Below are positions 5,813 to 59,530 of a DNA stretch of 64,000 bases, piece by piece. A program made the translations under genes and the position numbers. Under the pieces are notes generated by a model that made no database searches, had not been told where the DNA came from, and worked only from the letters and a program-made list of their open reading frames with translations. How positions within the stretch are numbered: position 1 is the stretch's first letter; every line of letters starts with the position of its first letter. The DNA is from Leucoraja ocellata (taxonomy: Eukaryota), in NCBI GenBank assembly GCA_036785375.1, contig JAWMAR010000033.1, positions 7,254,001 through 7,318,000 of the forward strand. Reading direction: 5' to 3'.

Positions 5813-7212
5813 CTAGTCCAATACAATACTTTTCCGGAGAGGTTCTTCCAACTCAAAAGCCCTCTCTCTGTTACATGATAGTGACCTTCGACGGAGTTTT
5901 CTCATTCTTGCCTGGAATGCAATTTTTCCATCAATATCTTCTGGATTTGATATGTTGCACTCCGATTCAATTAACCCAAATGATCTTCTGCGCATTGTAG
6001 TACTCTTGTTTCTTTTCTCCAAATGTTGAGGGCTGGTTACCTCTATCCATCTTAGTCCTTCCCTATTCATGCAACCAGACAGCCTGGAACTACGTCTCAC
6101 CTTCTTTTTAGATTTTGTATTTTGAAGAGCACAATCTGAATGTTTAATACAGGTTTCCGGTTGATTAACTGCCTCCAACATACTAGTGTTTATCTGCTCC
6201 AGAAAACAATGATCAGCAAAATTGAAAAGTAGAGATTCACTGTTGGCTGTATCCACCTCATCATCAATTTGATAGGGAACAGTTGGTTCAGCAATCCCCT
6301 TCCATGAAAGTCTCTTCCTTCTTTTCTTTCTTCCTGAGAGGTTCTCGTCTTTCTCTTCATTTTCATCTCCTGCATTGACCACATAACATCCATTAAACTT
6401 CAGGACCTGTTCTGATTGAGTCACATATGGCAAGTCTATTGCATGGAATAACTTGCTTTGTCTGCGGCTGGATCTGCTTCGAAATTCTTCCCGAGCTTCT
6501 GGTGGTGAAATAATATTTTCGTTAAAAACAGTAATATCACCTGTCACCGATTCACTTCTCGTTTCTTGAGACTTTTCAGATGCAGAGGCACCGATAGGAA
6601 TCAATTTCTCCATTTCATTTGGCTCAGTTTCCTCTCGTCTTTCATTGACAACTTCAAGAACATTTGATTCAGATTCCAAAAGAGAACCTGCACCACCGTT
6701 ATCATCAGTATTAATTATTTCAAAATATTCTTCATGCCCCGTCTCCATTTCACACTGCCCTTCAGATGGACTTTGCGTATCTGTTATTCCTTGTTGACTG
6801 CTTTTCATCAGAACAGGCAGTTTAGAAAAAGGTTTGCTTTTAATCTTTATTAAAGATTTTCCCTTTCTGACATCTTTGGCGACATTATCAGTCCATTTTA
6901 CTTCAAATGCCATGTCTTTCTTATTTTCACATAGAGAGGGTAACTGACTATTATCACATTTAAGATTGTAATCAAATTGGTTTAATCTCCTGGGCATAAG
7001 CCGATGATCTCCAGTATTCCCTTTCTGAGTTTCACTTTCAATATCTGATTGAATTTTCTGTTCCTTCTCAAAGCAGTGCACCGCTCCCTTCCGTGGTCTT
7101 CTTCGTCCTTGTGGTTTTTGCACAGCCGACTTCCTAAGGCTGCAACCAGGAGTCCATCCATTAGCTAACGACTCAGACTTGGACATTGAATGCCTTCTTC
7201 CTCTATCAATAC
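5813..7212 (-). CDS. CDCA2: CDCA2 terminal coding exon
   Basis: Acceptor TTCTACCAAACAG; long open frame to TAG at 5813; contains RRRSF, like the Repo-Man C-terminal histone-binding region. Confidence 0.85.
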
Positions 7213-10200
7213 CTGTTTGGTAGAAAACATAACAGTTGGGAAATGTTTTTAGAATTGCAATGTGGTGGCAGTAAAATATAAAGTTCAATAATTTAGCTCA
7301 CTTCCAGGTTTTTGATGTCGGACCAAATTAAGCAGAAAAGTAGGTAATGTAATGTAATGTTGTTAGTTTTTATATCTATACCAACAAACACCACCCTCCT
7401 GTACTTGGGGACATCCCATAACATTCAATCTGGCAAAGTATTTTCTTGCAATATTAATAACAAGTATTTTGTGTAATAAGTCTCCTGAACAATTCAAAAC
7501 TGTTTACTGAAAACAGAAAATTAACTTACAACACTGATTTGCTACTTCCAGAATAAATACACAACTTCAAGTTGTCCAAAATAGCAAATACAAAAGCATA
7601 AGGAGCGCTTGCAATTAACAAATGCATTTTAGCTCATGCAATTGTAATTTAATAACATTCAAGTAGCCAAATTATGAAGGAATTTTTCTGGCACGATGAC
7701 AATAATAAATTTCCTGATTTTTTCTCTAGCCATACAAAAGTGGGCAAATAACTTGAAGCAAAGACTTTCAACCCAGTGTATTCAAGATTTAAAATGCATC
7801 CATTAAAAACCCAATAGGATTACACAAAATATAATGCGGTTTGGATACCGTTGTGGTGTTGCATGTATAAATCTCTCACCAAGTTTAAAGGCAACACATA
7901 ATTTAGCTCAAAAGTTTTCCTTTTCTTTCCATTAGCTAACCCACCTGACAAACACTGTTTTTCCACAATTAAAAATGTCAATTAAGCATACTCAAAAATA
8001 AATCCAATTGAAAAAAAGGGTCACCACACCAAAGAGGATTTATAGGAATTTTGTATGAGAATAATATTCCAACATCAAATGAAATTACTTCACTATAAAA
8101 TGGCTCCGACCATTATACCTTTGATCAATTCACTTGCTTTATAGATTAGGTTGTTTCCCTTCCTGAAACGAAGGGACAAACCTTCATAACATGTATTCCT
8201 TTATGAACATAAAATGTTACTTACCCTCAAGATGAATCAGACTGGTTCTCTTTGGGGTTTCACATTCCAACATTCCTTCACTATTGGAGAAATCTGTTGA
8301 TTCAGACCAGATATCCAACACCTCTGCAATTGGGCTCAGTAATGGCTTCTTTGAAGCATATTCACGTTTTCCATAAAGGCTCTTCTTGAACTTTTGTTTA
8401 CACTTTCCTTTAGTTGCCTGCAAAACATTTTTGCCATTATAATTTCTATTCTCCTTTAATTTACTGTTAAATATGGAGATACGCAGTGATGCATAGCTGA
8501 TCCATGTAGTACCAGGACCCAAGTCGTCATTAATGTCACTAGATTTATTTACAATACATTGACAATGATGCAAGACTATAATGTTCAACGTTAGGCATGA
8601 CTCTGCGAGTAGCAGCCCATGGTCCAAAGAATCAAGAATTTAAGGACCACTTGACAGCACAACCATATCTCTTTCAGGCCGACATAAATAATAGCACTGA
8701 AGGATCATAGGATTATTAGATAGATGTCCAGAGCATCAAATGTTTAACTCGAGTCACCCTCGGCCCAGGTATAAGATTATATAGCTCCAATCAGAGAAGG
8801 TGGCAGCTCTTGTAGCACCCAGCCCAAGATCCATCCCTGAATACATAGCAGTTTCTTGCAGGATTTCACAATGAAAACTACCAACTACGATAAATTTAAG
8901 AATACATGGCTACAGTTTAAATGTATTATATATTTCATTATGCACTTTTAGATATTCTGAGAATATACAATGCACCATATATTAGTGGTATGTTATTTTG
9001 TTTCAACTTTAAGTGTTCACCTTTGTGCTTAGCTCAAACGCCACTTAACACAAACGCTCTTCTCTTTAAACGTTGCCAGCTTTGCAAACCTCAGAGAATT
9101 CCATGCTCCTCCAGTTTTAGACTCCCCCCCCCCCCCCCATTTTGCCCCCTCCAATGGTGGCCATGCCATTAACTGCAATGCTCTGGAAAGGACTTCCAGT
9201 AGTTGAAGCTGTGGCCATCATCTGATGATAAGTTTCAGTTAACTGGCCTGGAATATTCATTCATACTAAAAAAAAGGCCTTCAATTCAGTGGGTGAAATA
9301 TTATAGATTTTTTAAGAAATATCCTTACAGAATTTACACCAAATACAGAGGACACTGGTATATAGCACATTAATAAAATCCCAGTTTTATTGTATTCCTT
9401 CCCCTGAACCAAATCATTTACTAACAATGAAAACTTATTTAAAAGACAAAGTAACTGATAAATTAAAAATAATCCAAATGCAAGTGCTTACTGTAGAGTT
9501 CTTTGAAATATTCTTCACATTGCTCTTGATCCTACTAGACCTGCGGGGTTCTTCTTTCGTGGACTCATGGTCCCCTTTTCTAGTTTTCTGTGATTTTGTG
9601 GTTGGGTTCAAAATTACATCTGCATGAAGAGCTTTGTAGCATACATTTTTGTCTTCTATTTCATCTCTCTGTTCAGACAGATTCTCAATGTTGGGGCAAG
9701 GGTGTCCATTAAAATTAGTTTGCACCCCACCATTGCTGGAGTAATCAGGTTTTTTTTGACTGAGGTATACATCATCTGTTTTTGACATTTCAGTTGAGGG
9801 CAGGTGGTTCATATCAGATTCAACCATTGATTCTGCTTCTAATACAGTAGATTCCAACATAATAATTGCAGGAATACTTTTGTCAATGTCTGGTTGTATT
9901 TCTAACGGCTTCTTAGAATCTGGTTTCTTTTTGGTCAGACTTCTGCGAACTGTAGCAGTGCACTTCTTAGCATTTTTCCTCTTCCTCGGATGCCCAGAGG
10001 AACTGATTGGAAATGGAAGAGTTTCAGTCAGTTCTTCAATTTTCACTTCCAAAACCTTACACGGATAGTCATCATTTTTATTATGACACTTCCGATTATC
10101 TGGTCCAAATTTACATTCTGACAACGGAGATTCAATTTCAAAGTTGATAGATATTGGGTAACATCTGTCTTCTTCAACATTCTGTGTTCCAGCAGGACTA

Positions 10201-13200: not shown

Positions 13201-16200
13201 GAGGAACATGTCCTTGTCTACCTTCCAAATAATATCAAATTCACCACGTACAGGTAACTCAATTTTTCCTGTTGTATTAGAACTAGCGTAGTTCAGGTGT
13301 ATGCAGAAATATTACGTTTTTCGCTTTCAGACACTGCCTGATCTACTGATTATTTCTAGCATTCTCCTTTTGACTTTAGATCTCACCCATAGCTCTGACC
13401 TATATTTTGCAGCTTTTACATATCCCCAATTGATTGTTCTCCCTTTAACTGCCCACATTAGTCAACCAGATAATTTCATAAAAAGTGAAAATCACTTCTG
13501 TGATTCCAACCTCATCCCATCATATTATTTTTGTCCTACCTAGCTCTCCCCACCCTCTGTAATGAAAAGATTATCTTGACTCTGATGGTTAACTTTTTTT
13601 TACTGCAGCTGCTATCCGACCTGCTGATGGTTTCCATCATTTTCCCACTTTTATTTCAGATATCCAGTTTGTTTATAATTGGCATCTTAAAGAATCAATC
13701 CGAATAAATTAAAAACAAAAAAAATAATACTTTAATACTTAATCCATTGACCAAAGACAAACACAGCTGGAAAAAAACCTTGCAAAGTGGGAACTTGGAT
13801 AACTAAAATTTTCCATAGAACACTGCCGTATTGCTATTTTATTTGCAGGCAGATGATGCGAGCCATTCATTTATGATGGTGGTAAAATATTTCTATTATT
13901 TGTCATTCGGAATTTTTAGTTTGAATGTTCCAAAATGTTAGATATGATTTTGTCTGCACAGTGATGTTTTTTTCAAAAAGACATGCAAAGATTGACCCAG
14001 TTACACTGATATAGAGAGTTCTGTCATGTATGTGAATAATGATAATGGTTATACATAAATAGCTTTGGGGACAGCTATAAAATGATCTTACTTCTCTGGA
14101 ATGCAGGATGACTAACAAGAATAAGAATAACTTCATAAACAGGTGGAAAAGTTTTAATTGATTATATCCCTTAAAAGCATCCATTAGAACTGTAAAATTA
14201 GATGGAGAAAAATGATCTATTTGAAAAATATGCTCTTGCCAACCGCACTTATACCCGAGTTAGCAGCTCTGAAATGTTCAAATAAAAATGAATCTATTAC
14301 AATATTGCATGAATAATATGAAATAACTAATATGGTTTGAATAACAACCACAATACGGTTAAGCAGCAACTGGACAGTCGTAGAATGAGAAGCAGTAATA
14401 CAAACAAAAAAAGTCAGATATGCAGGGAGATGTTAAGACGTTCTTGCATACTACAGTTCCAAATATTGTAATGTAAAAAAAAAAAAACAGAAACAGCAAA
14501 TGCAAGAAATTGAAAAAAAAAATGCTGGAAACACTCAGCAGTTCTGATACACTGCTGCTCGGGAATTTTGTCCTTCAAGACGATGGTTGAAATTCAGGAT
14601 GAATTCTTCATTACATTTTTTTTTTTTTGGCTATTCTTTTTTAGGTTTAGAAAATAATGGGCAGCATTTGTCAAAGTGTCTTATGTGCTCTCCCAGCAGA
14701 CACGAGATCTAATGATGTTCTCTTGCATTAAAGGGAAGGAGTATGTTGTAACCAAGACTACTTGCAACTGGTTTCCAGTTATATTCACAGACTGGTGATA
14801 TGTAGGCCAAGATTAAAGAGACATGGGCTTGCCTTCACAAAGGCGACTCATCATCATATGCACTTGATCCTAGAGGTTTCTTAGAAAGAAGCACTCAAGT
14901 GAAGATATTTCCTGTTTTTAAACACAGATACCAGGTATGCAATTATTGAAAAGGCAAAATGGATGCCAAATCACACAGATCCAAGAACAAGCCTTTTCTA
15001 TTTTCTCAAGTGCTTAATGTTGGTCTAATCACCTCTGCAATGGAATCTCAAAAACATAGCCCAAAATCTTTTAGTCTACTCAGGTTTTGCTGATATGAAA
15101 ATGAACCCTCAGCATTTTTCAAACAAAGCATTTTGCTGCTTATGACGATCCACTTTGTGAGTAAAACTATTTCCATTAGAGAGTAAGCAAATCAAACAAA
15201 CTCTAGTTGTCATAAGTGGGTAAACATGAGCAACAAGTCGGTAACAAGACAGATTGATGAGTGGTCGGAAGTGCACATTTTCATGGCTGTGGTACATCAG
15301 CACCAGCTCTTCCTCCACTCCACCCTGCCTTCCTACCTAACAAGGAAAAGGAGCAGGGTACAGATGTGAGGAGCCAATGGTGAGCATCACTCTTATGCAA
15401 CCTAGCAGCAGGTCAGAGCTCACTACACAACAGCAATGTGTTTCATTCAATGATGAGGAATATATGTAGGATTAATTTTAATAATATTGTTTTTCTTGCC
15501 CATAACATATGCAATTACATGCTAAGATGTAATATATTAATTTAAATTCCAGCAGATCCATCAATAGCTTCAGGTAGAATTTTACTGTAATCGGTCACAT
15601 GCAATGTTAAAGTTGAACTTTAAAGTAGCCATCTTAGCACCTTGGAGCTGCTGCGGGGTTACAAAAAAAAAATTTGATGATCTTTCTAACCAACAGTGTG
15701 ATTCCAAATACCTTTCAGCTTCATTTTTTTTTTAATTCTGGGATCCCACTTGTTTGATCAATCTGAACTCCCAATATGAATATGAATTACCGGAAAGAAA
15801 AGAAAAAGCAGGCATGTTTACCTTTTTCTCTTCCAGACACGTTTTGGTTTTTGCCCTTTGTTTTAGAGCAGAGGGAGGACTATCACTGAAAGTGATCTGC
15901 GGATGTACTGGCATTTCCCCTCTGCGTAGAGGTGTATTGGATGGTAACCTCTTATCAAACAGCTCGGGCGTCAGCTCTCCGCCAAAAGTCACCTTTTTCT
16001 TTTGTGTCAGTTTCCTGCAGCTTGTAGACAGAATGCAGTCTTGCTCCTCTGTAGGAGTAGAATCTAAAATACAAGAATTACAATAATATGTTCTTGCCTT
16101 AGCAAATCAACCAATTCCTAACCAAAGATTTTGTTTTGTAAAAGAAAGTCAGTGCCAGTGTCCAATTAAAGGCAACTGACAATATCACAGCAGGAACACA

Positions 16201-19200
16201 AAGATAGGTCAGAAGATTGCATGGCTGAAGGGATGGGCACTTAGGAGATTGGTTCAAAAGATTATGGCCCTTGCAATCCAGAGTAAGTTAGCACACAGAA
16301 CCCAAAACAGGCTTGGAAACAGAATGTTTTTTAAAAATGTGTTTGCAAATGGATGTCTATGATTAGTGGCATCCTACTAAGTAAAGAGGTCATTCTCTAT
16401 CGTTATAAAACCTTGATCAGACCTTAGCTGGAATACTTCCTGTATGCAGTTTTGGCCACAAGGCTTTAGGAAGGATGTGATAGCATCTTGGAATACACAT
16501 ACTTTCATTTGTATACTAACAACATCCATTAACAAATAGGTGTACCCAAGCACCATATCATGCATCCTCTACCTACCTATTTGCCATATACCAGAGAGGT
16601 GTGGCAGTTCTGGAGCAGAATTATTATTGTCATCCTGAAATGTGCCCATGAATGCTGCCATCTTACTTTTCATCATTGAAACTCTCTGAGATTCCTAATT
16701 TAAAAAAAAAAAAATCACACAATTATTTAATTAGTATAATTTAAAAAAAATTATTGGAGCATTGAGCAATAGTTATTATATACATATTATAATACAGATG
16801 AGTTTGTTGCTGTTCTTTTTCTACATTGTTTTCCAGACAACATAAACTGCAGAAGGAAATGGAGTAATTGAATTTCTAGCGATTATTCAAATGTACCTGC
16901 ATCTTCTGTTTGGCAATATAGCAAATAAGACTATTGGTCTCTGGGGATCCTCTGGCTCCAACAGAAGACACTCTCCGTGAGCATATTTTTCTCCCTTCAG
17001 AGAGTATTCCTGCAACACAAGTTTGGGAAAATATCAAGTAGATCTTGGGCAGCAAAATGAAGCAGCAGTCTTAACTTGATGTGTTATTTCAGAGACAAAA
17101 GGCCCAAACACAAACTTTCAAATTTGTCCAGAAAAGACATTGAAGGAGTAAGTACCCTTCCAATCAGTGATAATCAGTAATATGGTCACAAGGAAAGAAG
17201 ACGCACCTAAACAAAACATTGCAGATGGTTAAAAAAAAGTTATGTTTAAATTTTTAATTATTCAGCAAATTGTATAATTAGTGGTCCCTGTTGTGTTACC
17301 TTTGACAGATGAAGATCAAATAATCAAACAGAGTCATTAATATTCCCAGTATATAAACGTCTTTGAGTTTATAATCCTTAAATTTAAGAATGGAAATCTG
17401 GAGGACCATAAAACCAACAGTCTAGTCTGGCTTAGTTTTTTCTAAAGGACACTGCAGTGGAACGCTTCCTTTGTAAAATAAAATCTACCTGCTGTCTTAC
17501 TGGATGAGCAAGCACAATATTTGCAGTTTATTTTCTCTTTAAATAATTATTCGAGCGACGACTTCATAATCTACAAGTCAATAACATTATTATTGAGCTG
17601 ATTGTACTACAGTTCGTTTTAACCAAATAATTCCTTTCAAGGAAACATCTTAGAAATGTTCCAAAGCACTCATAGGTTTATTGGAAGGGTGATCAATTGG
17701 TGAAACAAAATGCTCACGGCACCATTAAAAACAGTTAAACAAATACCATTAATGAACTTCTCAACTAATTTTACACTATTATTGAATAGTAATTGCAGGA
17801 TTACAAGCCTTGTAATGTTGCAGTGTACAATGTTCAATGTCCTACATGGAAACAAAACTTTAAAATATTTATTACCAATAATAATGAACGCCTTTCTCAC
17901 CAGGGACTAACTGTACAGAACGTTTTTCCTTCTATTATTTATTACGTAAAATAATATGTGTGATTGTGTTTAGAATTTGTTTGGTTGTTTTGTTGTTCCG
18001 TGAGCATTGCCACTTTCATTTCACTGCACATCTCGTATGTGCATGTGACAAATAAACTTGACTTGACTTGACTTGATTGAATATCCAAGCCCAGGTAACA
18101 TTCAGAACAAGGAAACCTTGCAGTGCAAATGACCTTACTCTCATCCCAAATAACACAATCCAAGGACAAGATCTGTATTTTTTTTCTTACTTCAGATCAG
18201 TATTTTACTACCTGCTGAATTCAGGCTAAACGGTTCTGCTGTCATTTTCCACTGATTTGCAGCATTCATTGAAATATCCAGTGAAGGGGGTGGTGTTTTT
18301 GTAGCACAGGATTTGGATTGCTCCTTGTCCACATTCACTAAGCAGTCATGATGTCGATATGCAGTATTTTCAGAATCAATCTCGCTGATAGTATCATAGT
18401 CACCAGGTGTTGCTGGAAAGGAAGTCCAGGTCTCACCATCTCCACCAATTGCTTGAACTGTGGGTTCGACAGAAGAAAAAAGACAACCAATCTTTACCAA
18501 CCACTACAGATGGTGTGAACAAATTTAAAAAGACCGTTACCAGGTAAAAACAACTTCAATAAATTAAAATGTTTACATAATAGAAGTTGTGGAATTGTGT
18601 TCAAAGTTCGGCCATAGCCTTTATTAAACTGCAAATGAGCATAATGAAAATTGGCCACTATACCACTCGGATAGGGAGGAAGAGGTGGGAAAAAGAGATA
18701 ATGCTGCTATACATTAGTGTAACTTCTACAAATACATGTTTGGTAAAGATAGGTTAGAATCAACAGGAGCTCTCTGTAGCAAAATAACATTCAAATGCAC
18801 TGCATAGTATTTTAACTGAGGATACTTAGGGAAAGTTTTTGAGACGACTGATGCCCAAGTAAGAGCATCCCGATAAGATTCAGCAAGCTCCAGATGTTAG
18901 GAAAGATGTATAGGTAATCGGGTTTCATCCAATTCGTTGATACCCATTTATTTTCAGAATTTTCACCACCCCTATTTTACAGACCAGCTCCCCCCATTAT
19001 CCCACCAACCTACCCGGCTGTTCCTTTAATGAGGGCATTTCATCTTTCAGCTATGTTCTTGGTGTTCATCGTATTGTAAGCGTGCATGCAAAACTCTACT
19101 CTTATTGAAAATGCAATTAGATCGATACAGTTTACCTTCAGTTTCCCAAGTAGCAGATTTACAAGGAAAATTAGGTGGTGTTCTGTCTTCAGAAGGTGTT

Positions 19201-22200
19201 CGGTCTTCAGAAGGCAAGTCCAATTCTGTGGGTGTTATAACTGGCACATCCACATTGGCTGTTTCACAGGTTTCTTCTTGATAGGCAGACAATTGTACTC
19301 CAAGCTGAGAGTTCACTAGTTTGGTGAATTTCAACATTTTCCTTTCATTTAAAGTTTGCACAGGACTGTGCCTATTATTTGTAACTGATGGATGTTTAGG
19401 AGAGAGCTGGTCTGTTGTTTGATCTAGGTTTTCAACTGATGATAATTTTATTTCACGTAAAGTACCAGCTCGTGATTTCCTTTTACCTGTTAATAAGGAA
19501 AGTTATTTCTTTACATTACTAACAGCAATTGCAATAAATTAATTGAATAGTTATTCCAACATCTTTGATCACTTGACTGCCAGTAATTTACTGCACTTTA
19601 AAACATGAAGGCTTTGCACAAATGCACGTTTTTTATACAGTATTAACAATATTGAAGAGTTGGATTTTCTTTGCATAAATGAAGTGTTGCTAAAATAGTA
19701 CATGCTTTTAGCTAGATAACATTTGGACAACAATCTGCAGCCTTGGACTCTTAACCAGAAGTGGAAACACTGGTACCCTACAGCGCAGCTTAGCTTAGAG
19801 AAAACCCATTAAGGAAACATGCAGAGGCTGCCTGTGAGTGATAGTGCTGTCAGTGCAGTTGTTCAGCATTGAGATGCAGGGCTGAAGACGAACCCCTGCC
19901 AACGCGCGCATTTACTGGAGAGCAGCAGCAGATGCTTCAGATGTTGCTAAATCGCCCAAATCCAACGGTCTCTTTCATCATGTCCTGTTGGGTATGGTAG
20001 AAGCAACGGTTGCTTCCTCTGTTTGGCTGCACATCTCTCCCCAGCCTGGAGATTTTCCACGGTAACAAACATAATGGTGGTTGATGGCCATTGAGGTTGT
20101 CAGAGATAGATTCCGTGGGCTGGGGAGAGATGGAGTGCCATACAAATAGATGAGAGGTGGCTGCGGGAGGTAAAAGCCAGCAGGGGCTGCAGGTCATGGT
20201 GTTGGAACATGGGATAGTAATGAACTAAATACTACCTTTGATTACTTTCAAAAGGAGCTGATGAGAGAGATTGTAGGATTTAGACAGTCAATCATAATGG
20301 AGCAGGTACTACTGCCCAAGCCCATCAAATACCAGCCCTCTCATTGCTTCTATAGAAACGTAGAAAATAGGTGCAGGAGTAGGCCATTCGGCCCTTCGAG
20401 CCTGCACCGCCATTCAATATGATCATGGCACCACTCCTACTATGACTCATTCCACACCAGGCCGTAGAAGTGGTAACCTCACAAATCAGCTCATTGAGGC
20501 AGGAGCACCAGCAGAGGGCCAAGCCTTCGATCAGTTGCCGGCAGTGTTGTGCACCATCAGGGAGGTAGGTGTCCACACCAGGCTCCCAACACATCATTGC
20601 AGTCAGTGGCTGATTTCAACGATCACTTAGTGCTGATTCCACTGACTCTCTAGTTCCCAAGAATGAGTGGGTAGTCTAAGGAGTTGGGACCAATGAGAAA
20701 TGTATTTATGCAGAGACTGTAAATCTTTGCAATTCTATTCCTAAGGGGGCACTGGATGCTCAATTGTCGTATATATTCAATTAAGGGGGAAAGCATATTT
20801 CTCTACATTGATATAAGAGGATATGGGAACATTGTGGACTTCAGATACATAAGCCACGATATTGAATTCAGATCAAACTGCTGCCTGGCCTATTCTTACT
20901 TGGATTCTTATGAGCTTACCAGGTACATTCCTCCTTGCTCTTCTTTCCTTGGGGTGAGGCACTTGCAATATAAAATCCTTCAAATGTAAAAATAATACAT
21001 TAAAATGTACTCCAAACAAATACCACTATGTGTTTAACAACTACCTCATGTTCTCACTTGTTTGCAACTGTAAAAGGTACAAGGGCGCAGGAAACAACTC
21101 AATGTGAAGACACTGAATGCTCCATTCATTATTACAATGCAGGAGGCCATTCAGCCCATACTAACAGAAACAAGGCAATTAATAAATGTTAGTATTTGCT
21201 CTCATATACATGATTAAATATGTCAATGTTTGATATATAAAATATTATACACAAACAGCCCTTGGATAGGATTTGTACAATTATCTGCCCATACCTGTAA
21301 TAATTTGGGCACAACAATTGCAATGAAACTGTTACCTGTCTTCACGCTTCATTCCGATTGAATACCTTCAATATGATATTCATTCTTGGAGCGTTCTAAT
21401 GCCAGTTCCCTGAAAACCATATTTTGGTGATATCAGCAGGTTGGAAAATAGTAGGCAAGCCCAAGCTTGTTCTGGTTTAAACCATCAAATTCCCTATCTC
21501 TGTACCAATCAACAATGTGATTAAGAATACAGAAATAGGTAGTGAAAAAGGCCAATTTATTTTCCTATCACTAGCCCGGATACCCTGAAAATCATTATGA
21601 CCAGATAGAGAACATTAGGCTCAGCATATACCAGGGATGATGAACCATGGAAAACCTCAAATCCTATGGTGTGCATTGCTCAGTACCATCATAGTAATGA
21701 AGCTACTCACAGGCTCAATCTTTTAATAAAGACTCAACCTTTAAAATCACTCATTTAAAAAAAAAAAAAAGACATACCTGTTCTGCTACATATTTGGCAG
21801 ATCCTAAAGTCAAGTTTTCAAAATTCTGGTCCTCAAACCTGCACAACCAATTAAACAAAAATAAGTACTTTTTAAATTAAAAATCAAAGTAACCTAAATT
21901 CTAAAACAAAACTTCAAATCTTTCTGCTGCATCTGTCACTTTATCAGGTAAACCAAACATGTTGGACCTCCTTAATCCTCAACTATCCATGCAATTTCCA
22001 AGATGATTAGCAGCATCATTGAAAACAAAATGGCAATGACTTTGGATGAAGAAATAACAGATTTGTAGATAAACTGCTTAATCTACAGTTCTTTTTTTGT
22101 GTATGATCAAGATAAAACAAAAATGTTTTTGGCTATTTGTTCAACTTCAAAGCAAATCCTGACTATTTGATATCCACAAACAATATATAAAGTTTTTGTG

Positions 22201-25200
22201 CAAGCCTTCAGGTTTCTACACCCAAGGAATCAAGCACATTGCCTACTTTATGGCAGCAACCAACTTCAGTTATTTGATGAGGCCAAGAACAAACTCAAGA
22301 ATTGCTCAATTTGGATCAGAATTGCCATCTCAAATCGGTAATTACATCATTTAGACAAGTCTCTACCTGTTATTTGCATCACTAAACACGAGAACCTATG
22401 TTAATTATGAAAAGATGTGTAGTTATTACCTGTCAGATTCACTTAAAGTTGTAATAAATGTTTTCATCAGGTTAACATCACATACATTTCCATTCAAAGG
22501 TGCAGCATTATTTAGATTTTTTGAATTCACCTGGAGAAAGGTAAATATAATTTATTAAAAGGTAAATCTGATATCACTTTCATCACTATTTAACAAAGTA
22601 TTCATTTCTCGCATATTGTTATTTAGCCAGAATACCCAATATCTTAAAGTTAATAGAAACCAACGCAATTGCACCAATTTTCCTTCTAATCATTGTTCAA
22701 AATTATTGCTAAAAGAATCTCATAATATTGCATTACAAGCGAGTTTCTTTTTTTAGATTAGTCCATTGTTACAGAATGTATGCAAAATAACAACAAAATG
22801 GGTTTCTTATCAACACATCAAAATCAAACACCATCTTTAAAACATAGAATACATTTCATTCTAGCCTTTATCCACCCATTCAAGGTTTGGTGACTACAAG
22901 TGAGTAAAATACAAAGACAAACATTTATAAAAGTTTGAAATATTATGCTTAATTACAATCCTACTTCAACTGCTCTTTTGAAGTAGACCAAGTCAGATAT
23001 AGTCATTTTGAATTAGCATTGAAATAGTTGCGAGCAGTAGGCTTTCAATGATAAGATAAATTTGAAAGACTTTTTGAAAATTTGAAACCCATGTTATAAC
23101 ACATGGGTTGAAGCATTCACTGCTCCCTATAATAAACATATAGTTATTTTTGCATAACTACACTGTACATAGCTACCACCTTCCTTATACGTTAATGTCA
23201 ATGTGAACAATACCCATGTCTAACCTTCCATCTTGCAATATCTGGAAAACAAATGCAACTACAAATATTTCAAATCTGTTTTACACAATAAATAATACCT
23301 AACAATCATTTTTCACTCATTATATTTTACTGTTTATCATTCATGTAAACAGAATCAATCTATCTAAAAATCAGCACCAGGATCATACAAGTATTCTTCC
23401 ATTCAATATCACCTCTTGCTCTACAAATATACGTTAGTATAAGCATTTAGTCACAGTGGCAGCAATACTTACTTCATTGTTCTCATACATTTCTAATTGG
23501 TAATGTTCTCCTGCCAAATCAATGTCCTTGGTGATCTCATCAAATTTTGACCCCCTTTAAAAAAAAAGGCAGGTGGGAAATGATATTCACAATAGTATGC
23601 AATACATCAGATATGCCAAACTTTATCTAGAATCAATATCCTCACCGGCTTACATTGTTAACTGCAATGTTCAGTGCTGAAACTATCTGCACATAGGAGG
23701 AGGAAAATAAGTCAAACTGACAAAATGTCAAAAGTGGTTGGTAGACAATGATTATCTGCTGGATCTGACATCATTGGCACTCAATAAAAAAACCTCAATG
23801 GGGATAAACACAGTAGGTGCCATTAACATTCTTCGCTTCCAAATTTAGTCTCCACATGGCAACATTCGTCTGATATTTCAAACCAGGACGATATTGGAAC
23901 ACAAATGAATATTAAAATGTTCTATTCAACGGCAAAAGCTGCTGACGCTGGAAAGATAAAGGAAAAAAGTGCTTTCAAAAACTGAGTTTAAAGCTTTGCA
24001 AATTTTATGGCCAATATTTCTCTGTCAGTCAGCAGCGAAACAAAATTGGCCATAAAACTGCAGAAGCAGTAATTTTGTGCAAAATAAATAGGAGAAACTT
24101 GTGCCTAACATGCAAATAATTAATTAATCATTAATGATGCACTGTGTGATACATATAAGATTTACCTAAATAATTTTAACTGAGAACTTATTTTGGGTGC
24201 CGATGAGTAGTACAACGTGGAAAAATTGAATCACTCTTTCAGTACAAATTGCTGTAATTAACAAAGATCATATACGAGGTTTAAAAGTTTTGATTTCAAA
24301 TTATGTAACCTGCATAACATTTTTATTTATCCCACAATATAATTTTCACACGTGCACACATGTCAAATGTTGAAAACAAGATTAACATAACTTAATCCTT
24401 CCAGTCAAGATGATGTTGGGAAGGGATATTTCAGGATTTAGGTGCAATGATGAGTGAGGAACACCAATACATTTCCAAGCCAGGATGACGTGTGCCTTGG
24501 ATGCAACCAAGAGATAGTTGAGATTCCTCCTACATGCTGCCCTCATCCGACAAAGAAATCTGACCTGAAATGTTGCCTGTCCATTTTCATAAGGTGTGAA
24601 AACGATCAAAGCAGACAATGATCATGGAGGAAAAGACACAAAATGCTGGGGTAACTCAGCATCTCTGGAGAGAAGGAATGGATGACATTTTGGGTCGCGA
24701 CCCTTCTTCAGACTGAGTCATGGAGGGGAGACTAGGGACATGATAGGGTTAGGTGTGAAAACAGATAAAAGCAGATGATGATAGAAGAGGCCCTAACTCG
24801 TATCTCCTCGGAACACCGCAGCTCCGCTCTTGCTCCCCTTCCCCCCAGTCGCAAAGGAGATAGTCCCCCTAAGTCCTCACGTTTGACCCCATCGGTTGTC
24901 GCATACAGCACATTTTCACCGCCTCCAACAGGACCCTACCGCTAGCCACATCTTTGCAGCTCGACCCCTTTCCAGAGACAGTTTCCTCTGCAACTCCCTG
25001 GTTAACTCATCCCTTCCCACCCAAACCACCCCACCCCTACACATGCACTTTCCCCTGTAATCACAGAAGATGCGACAACTGTCCCTCCTCCCTCGACACC
25101 GTCCAAGGACCCCGACAGTCCTTTCAGGTGAGGCCGAGGTTCACTTTCACTGCCTCCAACCTTATCTACTGTATCCACTGTTCCAGGTGAGGGCTACTAT

Positions 25201-26991
25201 ATATCGGCGAGACCGAGCGCAGGCTCGGCGATCGTTTCGCTGAACAACTCCGCTCAGTCTGCCTAGGCCTACCCGATCTCCCGGTTGCCAAACACTTTAA
25301 TTCCCCCTCCCATTCCCACACTGACCTTTCTATCTGCGCCTCCTCCATTGGCAGAGTAAGGCAAATTGGATGAACAGCATATTTCACTTTGGCAGCTTAC
25401 AAAGACCTGAGTTAGTTACAACCCAGCAGTATGAATATCGATTTCTCTAACTTCAAGTGACCCTTGCTTTTCCTCTCTCTGCCCTTCCCCCATCCTAGTT
25501 CTCCAACTAGTTTCACTGTCCTCCTGATTAATTTTGCTGATTGTATGCCTCCTTGTCAGTCAGCTCAGGTAACAATGTTTCATTGTCACATTGAATGGGT
25601 AGTGTTCGAGTTGAGACCCTTCTTCATACTGCTGTGTAATAATCTGCAGAGATGCTGCCTGACCCGCTGAATTACTCCAGTATTTTATGTCTATCTTCGG
25701 TGAAACCAGTGTCTGCAAGGACGGTTCCACACAACATCTTTGATCGTCATCTCTCATGGTGTCTCGTTTTCACATCTTACCCTTCCCCAGTGTCTCCCTC
25801 TCCCCTGACTCTCAATCTGAAGAAGGGTTTTGACCCAAAACATCACTTATTCCTTCTCTCCAGAGATGCTGCCTGTCCCGCTGAGTTACTCCAGCATTTT
25901 GTGTCTGTCGGTGGATAGGTGATGTTTCGGGTCTGGTCAGAAAAAGGGATCGGACCCAAAACTTATCCACGTTCTCCAGAGATGTTGTCTGACTCGCTGA
26001 GTAACTCGAGCACTTTGTGTCCCTTTGAACCGAGTGTTATCCAAGCCTCAGCCCAGGGCTCCAAGCAGCCATTTGACACTGTGGGTAGGAAGGAACTGCA
26101 GATGCTGGTTTAAACTGAGGATAGACACAAAAAGCTGGAGTAACTCAGCGGGTCAGGCAGCATCTGTGGATAAAAATAGGTGAAGTTTTGGGCCGGAACC
26201 CTTCTTTAGATTTGAGAGTCAGGGGAAAGGGAAACTAGAGATATAGATGGGTAAGGTGTGAAAAGGACAGATCAAAGCAAACGTTGATCCAGGCAATGTA
26301 GAATGGTTCATTGTTGGCTGAGGGGAAGTTGACAACGAGGTTTCTTGGTTCTCCAAAAGGAATTTAAACTGGAGGCATACAGAAAGTAAAATTAATCAGG
26401 ATGACAGTGGAACTAGTCAGAAAACTAGGGTGTAAAGGGGCAAAGAGAGGGAAAGCAAGGGTTACTTGAAGTTAGAGAAATCAATGTTCATACCGAAGAT
26501 AGACACAAAATGCTGGAGTAACTCAGCGGGACAGGCAGCATCTCTGGGGAGAAGGAATGGGAGACGTTTTGGGTCGAGACCCTTCTTCAGACCGTTGGGT
26601 TGTAAGCTGCAGAGATGCTGTCTGACCCGCTGAGTAATTCCAGCATGTTTTGTTTGTGTCCCTTTGAACCAAGTGTTATCCGAGCCTCAGCCCGGGGCCA
26701 TTTGTCGTTGTGTGTGGGAAGAAACTGCAGATGTTGGTTTAACTTTAAACCGAGTTATATCGACATAAAAAGCCGGAATAACTCAGCCGGTCCGGCGGCA
26801 TCTGTGGAGGAGGAGTGGGTGATGTTTCGGGGGTAGAAACGCCTTCAGACTCCCAGTCTGAAGAAGGGACTTCCTTCTCTCCACAGATGCCGCCTGTCCC
26901 GCCGAGTTACTGCAGTTTATTTTTTAGTTTCCATCCTCATCCATTTGCCGTTGCTCGCTCACCTGCGAGCACCCACCGTCCGCTCATCCAT
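5813..26991 (-). CDS. CDCA2: Cell division cycle-associated protein 2 (Repo-Man), multi-exon gene, about 1308 aa
   Basis: Phase-consistent GT-AG model: 26991-26963, 23554-23473, 22530-22430, 21838-21778, 20977-20920, 19486-19136, 18457-18212, 17009-16897, 16694-16577, 16063-15822, 13017-12807, 10213-9492, 8417-8225, 7212-5813 (3927 nt, in frame). Motifs: VGARGSPETNSLI, KKKVTFGGELTPELFDKRLPSNTPLRRG, KSLYGKREYASKKPLLSPIAE, RRRSF. The 5' exons and 13017-12807 are less certain. Confidence 0.88.
8225..8417 (-). CDS. CDCA2: CDCA2 exon with PP2A-B56 docking motif
   Basis: ATKGKCKQKFKKSLYGKREYASKKPLLSPIAE; acceptor TTTGCAG, donor G|GTAAGT. Confidence 0.9.
9492..10213 (-). CDS. CDCA2: CDCA2 large internal exon
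   Basis: Lies inside the 275-aa ORF; acceptor TTTTTGAAATAG, donor ACA|GTAAGC; phase 1 to 0 fits neighbours. Confidence 0.8.
10995..11085 (-). repeat. tRNA-derived SINE 5' fragment
   Basis: Reverse strand B-box GGTTCGATCC followed by V-SINE-like sequence. Confidence 0.55.
11650..12200 (-). mobile_element. Decayed CR1-clade LINE fragments (3' tail and RT piece)
   Basis: Reverse strand reads FFEEVKVIDDDRVADV..FSKAFDQVPHGRLIQKI, typical CR1 RT 'DFSKAFD.VPH'; tail motif duplicated locally at about 11439-11490 and inverted at about 12215-12280. Confidence 0.7.
12807..13017 (-). CDS. CDCA2: CDCA2 internal exon (boundaries tentative)
   Basis: Open frame WIQAYRF...QTILE; phase 0 to 1 bridges the flanking exons; no recognisable motif. 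Confidence 0.55.
15822..16063 (-). CDS. CDCA2: CDCA2 exon encoding the PP1-binding domain (RVxF, KiR-SLiM)
   Basis: KKKVTFGGELTPELFDKRLPSNTPLRRGEMP; acceptor TATTTTAG, donor AAG|GTAAAC. Confidence 0.93.
16577..16694 (-). CDS. CDCA2: CDCA2 exon
   Basis: ESQRVSMMKSKMAAFMGTFQ resembles the Repo-Man 'ISAFQSAF' helix; phase 0 to 1. Confidence 0.8.
16897..17009 (-). CDS. CDCA2: CDCA2 exon
   Basis: RRVSSVGARGSPETNSLICYIAKQ matches the conserved CDCA2 N-terminal motif; canonical splice sites. Confidence 0.92.
17944..18077 (+). repeat. LINE 3' end with (CTTGA)n tail
   Basis: ...GCATGTGACAAATAAA CTTGACTTGACTTGACTTGA; related CATG(TG)ACAATAAA ends at about 27575, 39410, 43355(-), 49535 and 57660. Confidence 0.65.
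18212..18457 (-). CDS. CDCA2: CDCA2 exon
   Basis: Open frame, pyrimidine-rich acceptor ending CCCACAG, donor CAG|GTAGTA, phase 1 to 1. Confidence 0.7.
19136..19486 (-). CDS. CDCA2: CDCA2 exon
   Basis: 351-nt open frame; acceptor TTATTAACAG, donor AAG|GTAAAC; phase 1 to 1. Confidence 0.75.
20920..20977 (-). CDS. CDCA2: CDCA2 small exon (tentative)
   Basis: DFILQVPHPKERRARRNVP; strong donor CTG|GTAAGC, weak AAG acceptor; phase 0 to 1. Confidence 0.5.
21778..21838 (-). CDS. CDCA2: CDCA2 small exon
   Basis: (R)FEDQNFENLTLGSAKYVAEQ; GTGCAG acceptor, CAG|GTATGT donor; phase 2 to 0. Confidence 0.65.
22430..22530 (-). CDS. CDCA2: CDCA2 exon, degenerate FHA-like C-terminal half
   Basis: VNSKNLNNAAPLNGNVCDVNLMKTFITTLSESD(R); TTTCTCCAG acceptor, CAG|GTAATA donor. 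Confidence 0.65.
23473..23554 (-). CDS. CDCA2: CDCA2 exon, degenerate FHA-like core
   Basis: (R)GSKFDEITKDIDLAGEHYQLEMYENNE; poly-T acceptor, GAA|GTAAGT donor; phase 2 to 0. Confidence 0.65.
24633..25910 (+). mobile_element. Penelope-like retroelement 3' remnant (GIY-YIG endonuclease, pseudo-LTR, upstream inverted pseudo-LTR)
   Basis: 25049-25350 reads FPCNHRRCDNCP...TASNLIYCIHCSR*GLLYIGETERRLGDRFAEQLRSV..LPVAKHFNSPSHS (Cys-rich linker and GIY-YIG, with a stop); followed by the terminal repeat and preceded by an inverted copy at 24633-24785. Confidence 0.9.
25910..26915. repeat. Cluster of Penelope-type pseudo-LTR repeats in both orientations
   Basis: Multiple copies of ACACAAAATGCTGGAGTAACTCAGCGGG.CAGGCAGCATCT...GGGTCGAGACCCTTCTTCAGAC and its complement. 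Confidence 0.8.
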
Positions 26992-27345
26992 CCTTCACAG
27001 CGGGCCGTCCGTCCGCGCATCGGGCTCCCTCGGATGTAAACACGTTAAAACAGCCCACCAAAGTCCTCCGGAGAGCCGGCGGCGAGGCGACGGTCCTGTG
27101 GCAACTGGGCCCGGCGCTCATGTGCCGTCAATCGCGGTGGGGGAGGGGGCGGCAGTTGGTGGCCGCGTCACGTGGGTTCGGTTTGAATGCGGCGACGCGC
27201 GCCCTGACTGGCGCCTCCCCGTGCGCGCGCACGCCCGCCCGCTCCAACTGGCGCCTCCCCTTTGCGTGCGCGCGCCCGCCCTGACTTGCGTTTCCCCGTG
27301 CGCGCGCCCGCGCCCCTCCCCTTCCTCACCAGCCCGCATTGACAA
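26950..27345 (-). promoter_or_regulatory. CDCA2 CpG-island promoter with CHR-like element, E-box and GC/E2F-like repeats
   Basis: CpG-dense; TTTGAA at 27182-27187; CACGTG at 27169-27174; three related ~40-bp GC units at 27202-27322. Confidence 0.7.
26963..26991 (-). CDS. CDCA2: CDCA2 putative first coding exon (MDERTVGAR)
   Basis: In CpG island; Kozak AGGATGG; donor CAG|GTGAGC; phase 2 joins in frame to 23554. Confidence 0.5.
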
Positions 27346-29876: not shown

Positions 29877-32800
29877 CTAAAAAGAAAAACACAAACTTTA
29901 TACATCCCCCCAGAACACCAATTTACATTTATAGCTACAGTAGCATAAGATCACATTTAACAACAGCCTGTAACATTCATCAACATTTGCATTTACATCA
30001 TTTGCAGATTACATGGAAGGAAGCAGAGGTGATGGTGGAAGATTGTTTTTCCATATTGGAGGCCTGTGACGAGTGGTGTGACTCAGGGTTCGGTGCTAGA
30101 CCCATTGCTATTTGTCATCTCTATCAATGATTTGATTAAGAATGTATAAGACATGATTAGTAAGTTTGCCATAAGGAACCGCAGATGCTGGAAAATCGAA
30201 GGTAGACAAAAATGCTGGGGAAATTCAGCAGTCTGAAGAAGGGTTTCGACCCGAAACGTTGCCCATTTCCTTCACTCCATAGATGCTGCCTCACCCACTG
30301 AGTTTCTCCAGCATTTTTGTCTACCTCAGGATGTTCACCAGTTGGGCGGTGGACTGAGGAATGGTTGATGGAGTTTTAGTAGAGGAGTGCAAGGGGTTTG
30401 GGGAGTGTTGTAGAGCAGATGGATCTACGAGTGCAGGTACATTATAAATAACATCACAGTTAGATATGGTGATAAGGCTTTCCATAACTCGGCCTTCATC
30501 AGTCAGTTGGAGTCCTGGTTGGCCTTTATACAAGCAAGTGGGTGCAATCCCATACCCCCTGACTCGTGCCTTTTAGACTTTTAGAAGTCAGGCAGCCATT
30601 CACAATACAAGATGCCAGCCTCTAAACTGCCATTAGATTACTTGGTAGACATAAAATGCTGGAGTAACTCAGCGGGTCAGGCAACATCTCTGGAGAGAAG
30701 GAATGGGTGATGTTTCGGGTCGAGACCCTTCTTCAGTCCCGAAACGTCACCCATTCTTTCTCTCCAGAAATTCTCTCCAGAGAAACTCACCTTGTTTCTG
30801 TTCTGTGTGCTGCTTTGCAAGTCCTTTCGTCTCCATCTCTTCTTCATGCTGATGAGGGGATTTGCGATTCTTCTCAGAGTTTGCGGGACTAGCAGTATTA
30901 AAACAAATTAATCAATAACTGGTTCAACTACTAAAATCAGAATCAGTTTTAATATTTTCTAGTTCATCATACCATGATACCAACAGAAGCAGTTCCAAAT
31001 AATGATAGTGGTTACAAGCTAGAAATTTCAAGACTCAGTGACTTCCAGTGATTTGCCCATGCAATTCAAGCAGCATTAATTAGACGAGGGAGTGCTGTAT
31101 TATGACAGCCTTTCAAATAAGACCTTAAACCAAAGCACTGAATGCTCTCTCAGGTGGACATGAGAGTGATGTCCTCAGACAGCAGGGCATGCTGGTGTCC
31201 AGGCTGACTTTTAGCCCATTCACAGTCGGAACAAGTCTCATAAACCCCCTTCACCATTTAATTTAATGGCTAACATAACTGTAACCTCAACTATACACCC
31301 CCCTTTACCCAAGGCAGCATTTCATGCAACAAAAAAACTTTTAGCTGTACCCCAGTATACGTGACATTGCCTGAACAGTCTGTGACTCATAGCGCTGTGG
31401 CCAGTAGCGCTTTGTTTACGTTCCCACGCGCTTTTTGCCTTTCAGTTACAATTTATGCTTTTGACTTCTCCATGAGAATGAATAAAATGGTCCCTTTAAA
31501 GAATTGGACTATTGACTCACTCAGGTAATCTGGTACATTTTTCATATGTGGCTTCACAATTGCAGGGTGCAGAGGTTTATCGTGTCTCAACAATTGAAAG
31601 TCTCTAGGATTATCCTCAAAGTATGTCTGTAAAAGAATACAAGGTCAGAGAAAAAAATACCATATTTTATACCATACTTTAATTCTCCACAAAAATATTT
31701 TCCTCAAGTTTATTTTTCCCGTGTCCATCTTAGAAATCTGATGCTAGTTGACTAACAATGCAACAGAGGATCTCACTGGCTGACTAACACTAACAGAGGA
31801 TCAAGATTCCACTGACTACTGGTTTCCTAACATTGTAGCAGACGATGGAGAACCCACAGTTTCTCACCTTCAATTTCTCAGAGTTGAGTAGCTCCTGTTT
31901 GATTTCTTTGAGCCGAGCTTCCTTAATCGCCTGCTTTGTAACTGAACGCATGGCATCCTAGAAAGAGATGAAAATCTTTAAACAAGACCACCCCGACCCG
32001 AGGGCATCTAAAGCATTTCCAACCCTGGGACATCTAATGCACTTCCAGACAAGGCAATATTTGTGAAATTAACTAATCATCGTAGCGTAGAATAAACACA
32101 GATTAGCTCAACAATTAGCAATATAAAAATGTCATTTTTTTTGTTGGAAAGAGAAGCTGGCTGACATCAAAAATAACTCCTGGTGTTCTTCGCAACAATG
32201 TCACAGGATCTCGCATGCCTGAGGGGAGATGAAGCCTCAATTTAATGTTGCAGACAAAAATTTAATTTTCTAAATCTCACTGTTCCCTCAGTCACATATA
32301 GTAATGTCAGCCTAGATTTTAGTGCTCAAGACTCTAGAGTGGGATTTCAAACTTCTGACTAGGAGAGGAGTGTGCTTGCTGCTGATCCCCACCCCTCAAC
32401 CACACCTCAGGACCTTTGTTGAACAAATCTGAACAAATTAAATGGAAGTACAGGTTTCACCAATATGGTAATTTCTTAATAGTATTAATACCATAATTTC
32501 TTATCATATGGATCTTCAATTAACAACTGTGCGACAAGGATAGACATCGGATGCACCACAACGGCCATCACATTTTATTCATAAGGGGACAGCTCTGACT
32601 TCACATTTGTAGAATACATTTACACTCAACAAGGAGATCTTATAAAGACAGGCCAGTAAAAAAAAATATACAACAGAAATCAGTAGGTGATCGTCATACC
32701 TTACATCTGTAGCGGAAACCCTCAATCTCTTCAATGTGGAACCGGTAGGGTTTCAAAGCACAGTCCATGTTCTCTGTTGATAAGAAATAATAAGTATTGA

Positions 32801-47506: not shown

Positions 47507-47556
47507 GTCGGGAACGGCGACGTATTGCGTTTTGTGCCTGACCGTCACGTATTACA

Positions 47557-47931
47557 ATGCCTGAAGAAAAGAAAGTGGTTTCGAAGAAAGGCGCTAAGAA
47601 AACGTTAAATAAGGCTCCGGCCAAAGGCACCAAGAAGCGGAGGAAGGTGAGGAAGGAGAGTTACTCCATCTACATCTATAAGGTGATGAAGCAGGTTCAC
47701 CCCGACACCGGCATCTCCTCCAAGGCCATGAGCATCATGAACTCGTTTGTGAACGATATTTTCGAACGCATCGCCGGCGAGGCTTCGCGCCTAGCCCATT
47801 ATAACAAGAGGCTGACCATTAGTTCCCGGGAGATCCAGACCGCCGTGCGTCTACTTCTGCCCGGGGAGCTGGCCAAACACGCCGTGTCTGAAGGAACAAA
47901 GGCCGTGACCAAGTACACCAGCTCCAAGTAA
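47557..47931 (+). CDS. H2B: Histone H2B, intronless, 124 aa
   Basis: [88 protein letters not shown]. Confidence 0.99.
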
Positions 47932-59123: not shown

Positions 59124-59530
59124 GGCTGCGGCCGGCGAGGGGAGACAAGGCGGGAGGGAGGAGGGATGGACGACGGTTGGGGCTGATGGGCGGGGCCAAC
59201 ACCCATCGGATGTCCCGCCCCCACCCAGACGTCCCATCACGTGGTACACTGGCCAATGGCGGGCCCGCCCGCCCCGTCAGTCAGGGCAGCGGCGGCCAAT
59301 GGGGCGCGCGGCGCCGATCCAGGCCCCGCCCACGCCGGCCCGATGTGCGCCCGCAGGAAAATTGGCTTCTCAAGATGGCGGCGGCCGGCCAGGCCTGGTC
59401 GCGGCCGCTAGACGTGGCCTGGACCCCCTCGTGTGGACCCCACTGGGCTGGAGAGGGTGGTTACAGCTTTTATTCTCAGGTTAGATGCCCGCAGGGGAGG
59501 GAAAATCTGCCTGGCCAGAGGCCGCCAATG
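59095..59530. promoter_or_regulatory. CpG-island promoter with CCAAT boxes, GC boxes, E-box and YY1 motif
   Basis: CCAAT 59253 and 59296, ATTGG 59361, CACGTG 59238, CAAGATGGCGGC 59371, several CCGCCC. Confidence 0.8.

Follow-up and report, generated by a model that had tools for sequence, protein, structure and literature searches.

The closest described systems are human Repo-Man, or CDCA2 (PDB entries 5IOH and 5INB), and the FHA domain of Ki-67, or MKI67 (PDB entries 1R21 and 2AFF; Pfam family PF00498). Repo-Man and Ki-67 are both mitotic PP1 subunits, and the PP1 site is called 'the only region of homology' in the available part of Kumar 2016 (PMC5005033). The FHA residues that contact phosphothreonine, together with their neighbours, are given as G-R-S-H-N-N in the accessible part of a 2026 preprint (10.64898/2026.06.18.733134). 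The window analysed here is a stretch of 64,000 nucleotides (nt) from the skate Leucoraja ocellata, located on contig JAWMAR010000033.1 (C33 in the skate genome); coordinates are window positions unless a contig is named. It contains a CDCA2 gene on the minus strand, between about 5.8 and 27.0 kb. Like human Repo-Man, the skate gene has the RVxF and KiR-SLiM elements, the GSPETN and LSPIxE motifs, a carboxy-terminal RRSxR..GLxW motif and an EBF neighbour, but unlike it, the skate protein starts with an FHA-derived region. With the Ki-67 FHA domain it shares exon phases, the length of exon 2, His48 and Asn72-Gly, and chimaera CDCA2 contains the whole domain; in contrast to Ki-67, all 12 cartilaginous fish CDCA2s compared are devoid of Ser45, Lys46 and Asn67, and the skate gene also lacks exon 1 (about 30 residues, including Gly30), five codons of exon 3 and the Ki-67 repeats. 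With a probability of roughly 0.72, the two Ki-67-type FHA exons of skate CDCA2, spliced behind an ATG exon that is new, are a non-binding vestige of an FHA domain that would have been present in the common ancestor of Ki-67 and Repo-Man.

A sequence-only reading of this DNA had placed four small exons (82, 101, 61 and 58 nt) upstream of the CDCA2 exons. All four are open, lie on the minus strand, have AG..GT ends and follow the phase series 2,0,2,0,1 when the intron before the first of them is counted, as had been described. The amino-terminal part of the gene is made up as follows.

26963..26991, minus strand: E0, coding part of the CpG-island first exon (ATG + 9 codons), ending in phase 2, in the place of FHA exon 1 and transcribed from at least 27043 (transcripts)
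23473..23554, minus strand: E2, 82 nt, from phase 2 to phase 0, homologous to exon 2 of the Ki-67 FHA domain, with Ala and Gly at the Ser45 and Lys46 positions and His48 retained (transcript, alignment)
22430..22530, minus strand: E3, 101 nt, from phase 0 to phase 2, homologous to exon 3 of the Ki-67 FHA domain (116 nt) and five codons shorter, with Ala at the Asn67 position and NG retained (transcript, alignment)
21778..21838, minus strand: E4, 61 nt, phase 2 to 0, final FHA residues followed by linker; the MKI67 counterpart has 85 nt (reads, exon comparison)
20920..20977, minus strand: E5, 58 nt, from phase 0 to phase 1, linker; the MKI67 counterpart has 82 nt (exon comparison)
19136..19486, minus strand: E6, 351 nt, starting and ending in phase 1, linker (exon comparison)

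Skate CDCA2 mRNA contains the FHA-derived exons 2 and 3 behind the CpG-island ATG exon. Splicing was assessed on positions 21776-27300 in four sequencing runs; the evidence comes from close relatives rather than demonstrably from the species of the window, X7 being from another species, and X1 is taken to be RNA, no run that holds the region being recorded as such. Contig 1 of X1 (4,992 nt) contains positions 27043-26962, 23553-23471 and 22528-22428 consecutively and with no mismatches, forming E0-E2-E3; its exon ends are off by one or two bases where the junctions are ambiguous. In X7, exons 2 and 3 are joined end to end, and the raw reads of X24 cover E0, E2, E3 and E4 to a depth of a few reads. 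The Logan proteins P0122 and P0130 (1,261 amino acids, from 5.2-kb contigs) begin at the E0 ATG with the same reading and run on to the PP1 domain. The E0-E2 and E2-E3 junctions proposed from the sequence are present in transcripts, and the in-frame splicing suggested for the ATG at 26991 is seen in both the X1 contig and the Logan proteins. Similar starts of 8-10 residues, followed by exon 2, are found in the CDCA2 models of sawfish, Mobula and Hemitrygon.

Horn shark and sawshark isoforms (P0147 and P0141) have a short, E0-like in-frame extension ahead of exon 1; given its resemblance to the batoid E0 peptide, the upstream ATG may have existed before exon 1 was lost. The RefSeq CDCA2 model of the little skate (P0001, 909 amino acids) begins some 350 residues after the start that the transcript contigs show (window 16579-26991), and this truncated annotation can now be corrected. 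The first intron (24550-26950) is dense in short interspersed repeats, where RNA coverage is very deep owing to copies elsewhere.

Skate MKI67 (contig C82) has coding exons of 92, 82, 116, 85 and 82 nt, the end of the fifth having been picked for agreement with stingray MKI67. Its phases (2,0,2,0,1) are those of CDCA2, as the sequence-only reading had stated, and the agreement extends beyond the FHA region: in both genes the following exon starts and ends in phase 1, while that of PP1 runs from 1 to 0. Exon 2 of skate MKI67 matches the human Ki-67 FHA structures; it has the same length as E2 of CDCA2, and the two align without gaps with 9 of 27 residues identical, which only 2 of 100,000 shuffles equalled. 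The similarity between the third exons is weaker (122 of 20,000 shuffles were as good). A hidden Markov model (HMM) of eight shark and chimaera amino-termini, run against 156 proteins, links the window protein (E-value 4e-11) to skate MKI67 (1.5e-22), so that the expected profile similarity to the Ki-67 FHA domain does exist. Direct comparison of the skate CDCA2 amino-terminus with MKI67 by phmmer gives a weak match (E-value 0.004, 155 sequences), and the Pfam FHA family is matched neither by the full-length P0122 nor by exons 2 and 3 taken singly. By sequence and exon structure, exons 2 and 3 are homologous to the Ki-67 FHA exons. In the skate the FHA-derived part comprises these two exons and the first residues of exon 4 only, exons 4 and 5 being linker; with exon 1 absent from the transcript and no Pfam match, it is not a complete Ki-67-type domain. 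In exon 6, around 19175-19212 on the minus strand, a tandem duplication of 18 nt (six residues) is found that is absent from P0122 and P0130.

One further segment had been put forward as a frame-broken FHA exon 1.

24166..24251, minus strand: candidate dead FHA exon 1, unproven; AG/GT ends, 86 nt, not in RNA

In length it equals the MKI67 stretch between codon 3 and the donor, and in the LF-R frame it contains a stop and no ATG. No similarity was found to any of six shark or chimaera exon-1 peptides (p 0.46-0.80), and RNA depth over the segment is zero in all four runs, three of which cover the true exons. Against MKI67 the nominal p is 0.043, for a candidate that had been picked by eye, and among 41 donors the segment ranks first by a thin margin in local score and twelfth in global score. 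Its sequence may be that of an exon 1 remnant, a candidate status that falls short of the original proposal.

The gene is a true CDCA2, as its Repo-Man motifs and EBF neighbour show. The exons that carry the motifs are the following.

16897..17009, minus strand: exon with the CDCA2-specific GSPETN motif (motif scan)
15822..16063, minus strand: PP1-binding exon with RVxF and KiR-SLiM (Pfam PF15276, E-value 6.5e-17)
8225..8417, minus strand: exon with the CDCA2 LSPIxE motif, presumably a PP2A-B56 site (motif scan)
5813..7212, minus strand: last coding exon, with the CDCA2 carboxy-terminal RRSxR..GLxW motif (motif scan)

The PP1 exon is 100% identical to the RefSeq protein of Leucoraja erinacea. 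The GSPETN, LSPIxE and GLxW motifs are common to CDCA2 from teleosts to primates; the CDCA2-specific motifs were found in all three chondrichthyan proteins checked and in P0074, a primate-type CDCA2, and a pattern scan of the skate MKI67 locus found none of the three patterns. The PF15276 family has three matches in the skate genome: CDCA2 on C33 and one each on C82 and C978. The latter two loci have FHA exons and weak Ki-67 repeat matches and resemble two copies of one MKI67, so the separate MKI67 that the sequence-only reading had asked about is present. They score equally (C82:5401026-5432396 and C978:396658-420970) and are probably haplotigs. Ki-67 repeats (PF08065) gave weak matches only at C82, C978 and one unrelated place, with none on C33 and none in P0122. 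On C33 an EBF gene is located about 0.18 Mb to the left of CDCA2, and C82 has a second one at about 1.4 Mb from MKI67, as a duplicated block would predict; the pair are presumably EBF2 and EBF3, arranged as at the human loci. The first exons of the EBF gene on C33 occur twice, about 53 kb apart (C33:6899348-6980283), which is either a tandem duplication or an assembly artefact.

The PP1 motif had been described as Ki-67-like. Its GG and ELFDKRLP elements do match non-mammalian Ki-67, but it scores slightly higher with human Repo-Man than with human Ki-67 (41.5 versus 38.7 bits); VTF and NTP are of CDCA2 type, and RGE is missing from chimaera CDCA2. The Ki-67-matching parts are probably ancestral, and the motif is no evidence of a Ki-67-like identity.

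The skate gene belongs to a series of 17 chondrichthyan species, for which automatic gene models were used throughout except for the skate contigs. Chimaera CDCA2 (P0012) has a full FHA domain (Pfam E-value 2.4e-8), which matches the Ki-67 structures 2AFF and 1R21 over residues 7-101 (E-value 5e-15), and the chimaera has a separate MKI67. This domain of 100 residues is ungapped, with 48 of 97 residues identical to skate MKI67 and the HCKLEV stretch unchanged. The Callorhinchus milii entry A0A4W3HTZ3 (LOC103190865) is an orthologue of the skate protein with an identical AGEH; it differs in having a complete domain, and its UniProt label, 'FHA domain-containing protein', is automatic and makes no link to Repo-Man evolution. 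Seven sharks have all three FHA exons in degenerate form, sevengill and white shark scoring above the Pfam cut-off and the other five below. In the whale and zebra shark models exon 1 is joined to exon 4, or the start is later, and exons 2 and 3 occur in none of the isoforms listed (0/8 and 0/4); the models of two bamboo sharks start inside exon 4. Four batoids have E0 with exons 2 and 3, and the Narcine models have neither exon. The relatives thus form the series predicted by the suggestion that the skate gene is a snapshot of FHA loss after the Ki-67/Repo-Man duplication.

Outside the cartilaginous fishes, 103 other CDCA2s from mammals, birds, crocodilians, amphibians, teleosts and a few unnamed sources (among the matches listed, of 176) contained no FHA domain, the best HMM E-value being 0.26; bichir, gar, sturgeon, coelacanth, lungfish and cyclostome CDCA2s are outside this set. 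In a HMMER search, the 148 new rows screened among the best 150 of 1,720 matches included no strong GSPETN or LSPIxE match and no FHA protein with CDCA2 motifs besides those of chimaera and white shark; degenerate remnants, scoring more weakly than the matches listed, would rank below these 150. Among 129 candidates, a word-based search with the chimaera FHA domain recovered just two proteins, the query and that of sevengill. In the ESM Atlas, the skate amino-terminus led only to CDCA2 clusters, below 0.9, and the chimaera domain to FHA clusters at 0.90-0.91. P0260 was considered as a CDCA2-type FHA protein and rejected, being an FHA-kelch protein of the annelid Owenia fusiformis. It combines a Ki-67-like FHA domain with kelch repeats on a contig equal in length to the one carrying P0163, a Ki-67 fragment of this worm, and is either a real fusion or a merged model. 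The Ki-67-like P0155 has one FHA domain at residues 1-100 and another at about 1020-1117, and may come from merged tandem genes.

Binding residues were compared in human Ki-67 numbering (from P0251) across the 12 chondrichthyan CDCA2s that have exon 2. Of 95 Ki-67-like sequences selected, six were left unparsed; the other 89 all have Ser45, and 86 of them have Lys46. In the CDCA2s the Ser45 position is occupied by Ala in 11 and Asp in one, Lys46 is retained in none, and Asn67 is likewise absent from all 12 as read from the alignment, being Ala in chimaera and skate. His48 is kept in four and replaced in eight. Arg31 is kept in all 12, which says little because its codon is split as AG|G, where AG is also the donor-site consensus. 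Of the G-R-S-H-N-N signature the skate retains R, H and the second N, having lost G, S and the first N; the chimaera has AGEH as in skate, within a domain that is complete and devoid of the Ser and the first Asn. The Ala, H and NG had been described correctly from the sequence, but the replacement of Ser by Ala did not arise recently in the skate, and the His, kept in skate, is not a batoid trait (Tyr in the three other batoids). With Ser45 and Asn67 gone in all 12 including the chimaera, phosphothreonine reading was probably lost early, and the loss of binding likely predates the chimaera-elasmobranch split.

Constraint was gauged from percentage identity and tree length. Exons 2 and 3 together are 58% identical between skate and three batoids (linker exons 53-75%) and 63% between pairs of sharks (linkers 49-67%), with 68-86% for the three motif exons of CDCA2. 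Between chimaera and sharks they are 49% identical versus 16-41% for the linkers, a contrast inflated by linker misalignment. As the FHA region of elasmobranchs is conserved no better than the flanking linkers, the skate piece is likely a vestige. In a tree of 37 FHA rows the nine CDCA2 rows form one clade (100/100) whose stem measures 0.99. Counted from the chimaera split, the path of the skate FHA region measures 1.48 in CDCA2 versus 0.21 in MKI67, and that of the chimaera 0.24 versus 0.085. Lacking some 30 residues at the start of the domain, the skate remnant probably has no FHA fold. AlphaFold2 predicts only a hairpin at 28-42 for the skate amino-terminus, with a predicted local distance difference test (pLDDT) score of 45 from an 18-row alignment, and gives pLDDT 37 for the chimaera domain as a single sequence; neither run has a matched control, positive in the skate case.

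The order of events would be as follows. An early-vertebrate duplication of the whole FHA and PP1 gene, together with its EBF neighbour, is suggested by synteny and exon phases. The CDCA2 copy had lost Ser45, Lys46 and Asn67 before chimaera and elasmobranchs separated, which probably ended phosphothreonine reading in CDCA2 while MKI67 kept it. Rates suggest that the fold then remained under some constraint in the chimaera line and was released in elasmobranchs. Finally, transcripts and gene models indicate that lineages dropped different whole exons in frame: in batoids exon 1 would have been dropped and the upstream ATG exon, which has the same phase 2, spliced to exon 2, and in whale and zebra sharks exons 2 and 3 would have been dropped together (2 to 2). 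Matching phases may have made such independent dropping easy, since E0 ends in phase 2, as exon 1 does, and exons 2 and 3 together run from 2 to 2. In the skate, the remnant probably persists as an in-frame amino-terminal spacer on an otherwise ordinary PP1/PP2A-targeting Repo-Man. Several observations weigh against this course of events. Exons 2 and 3 have remained open and included in four of the five batoids whose models reach the start, possibly owing to some constraint, and the losses in carpet sharks and Narcine come from automatic gene models. The RNA is from close relatives and consists of contigs and a thin raw-read depth, X21 barely covering the gene; the E3-E4 and later joints are seen only in P0122 and P0130. 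The FHA tree, finally, fails to place the CDCA2 clade: in approximately unbiased (AU) tests, p is 0.49 for joining chondrichthyan MKI67 and 0.26 for a position outside all gnathostome MKI67. Retention since the duplication is likely, as the parsimonious reading, and the tree is compatible both with it and with a copy acquired later from chondrichthyan MKI67.

The main rival, unlikely as a whole and most plausible in the chimaera, is that the chondrichthyan CDCA2 domain works as a phospho-independent pseudo-FHA, for example by strand addition at the edge strand of exon 2, the batoid piece keeping this role as a short motif. The well-kept chimaera domain with its unchanged HCKLEV is in its favour, as is the fact that the best-kept part in skate is the end of exon 2. 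Some FHA-fold domains, MxiG-N for example, are not known to read phosphothreonine. In the accessible text of PMC3162421 MxiG-N has an FHA-like fold without the signature residues, but as an unrelated bacterial protein it offers an analogy only. NIFK is described, in the part of the preprint 10.64898/2026.06.18.733134 at hand, as binding the Ki-67 FHA domain also via an added strand. However, elasmobranchs show no excess conservation, the missing exons differ between lineages, the His is replaced in most of the sequences, and the invariant Arg is probably uninformative for the reason given above. A related proposal can be made tentatively from the sequences: cartilaginous fishes may keep the ancestral FHA and PP1 form of Repo-Man, the domain of the chimaera, and perhaps of some sharks, being a folded, phospho-blind pseudo-FHA selected for a different partner. 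If so, Repo-Man would have swapped phosphothreonine reading for a new interaction and then lost the domain several times through different in-frame exons.

It is very improbable that CDCA2 lost its FHA domain early in all vertebrates and that the chondrichthyan stem regained one from MKI67 by gene conversion or exon copying. The KLEVNENNE of chimaera CDCA2 is common to chondrichthyan MKI67, bony vertebrates having mostly K[IV]E..ENKE, and this origin would agree both with the AU result for grouping with chondrichthyan MKI67 and with the absence of FHA from the 103 other CDCA2s. It needs both a loss and a regain, however, and the CDCA2 stem is long; phases match beyond the FHA domain (exons 4 and 5, the large exon and the PP1 exon), as whole-gene duplication predicts, and invertebrate Ki-67 combines FHA with the PP1 motif. 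That the window gene is another MKI67, or that chance produced the resemblance, as the weak direct phmmer match and the NCBI name 'proliferation marker protein Ki-67-like' of the sevengill shark (Heptranchias perlo) CDCA2 orthologue P0005 might suggest, is refuted by the CDCA2 motifs, the location of the Ki-67 repeats away from C33, the shuffle tests and the homologues bridged by the HMM. The name given to this shark CDCA2 can be corrected as well.

An FHA domain in Repo-Man is real and apparently undescribed in the literature searched, the chimaera protein being already tagged as FHA in databases. No statement that Repo-Man has or had such a domain was found in that literature, most subscription journals being outside its reach. 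'FHA' occurs nowhere in the accessible part of Booth 2014 (PMC4032110), the available text of the 2026 preprint (10.64898/2026.06.18.733134) names CDCA2 once, as a separate branch, and the available part of a 2021 review (PMC8354752) was among the literature compared for how Repo-Man relates to Ki-67. The shared FHA region, the exon phases and the paired EBF neighbours are direct evidence for duplication of the whole gene. The order of change is visible as well, binding residues first and the domain later. The result is evolutionary and contains no new mechanism; the series offers natural intermediates with which to study the function of the Ki-67 FHA domain and the way two mitotic PP1 subunits divided their jobs.

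Upstream of CDCA2 and on the same strand, a multi-exon DEAD-box helicase gene (Pfam DEAD) is located at about 31456-40790, which we take to be DDX56. An H2B-type histone gene without introns is present at 47545-47928 on the plus strand; no second histone open reading frame was noticed nearby, and none was searched for. At 58830-59276 on the minus strand, a GC-rich open reading frame contains a Myb/SANT-like domain (PF13873), presumably of the kind linked to Harbinger transposons.

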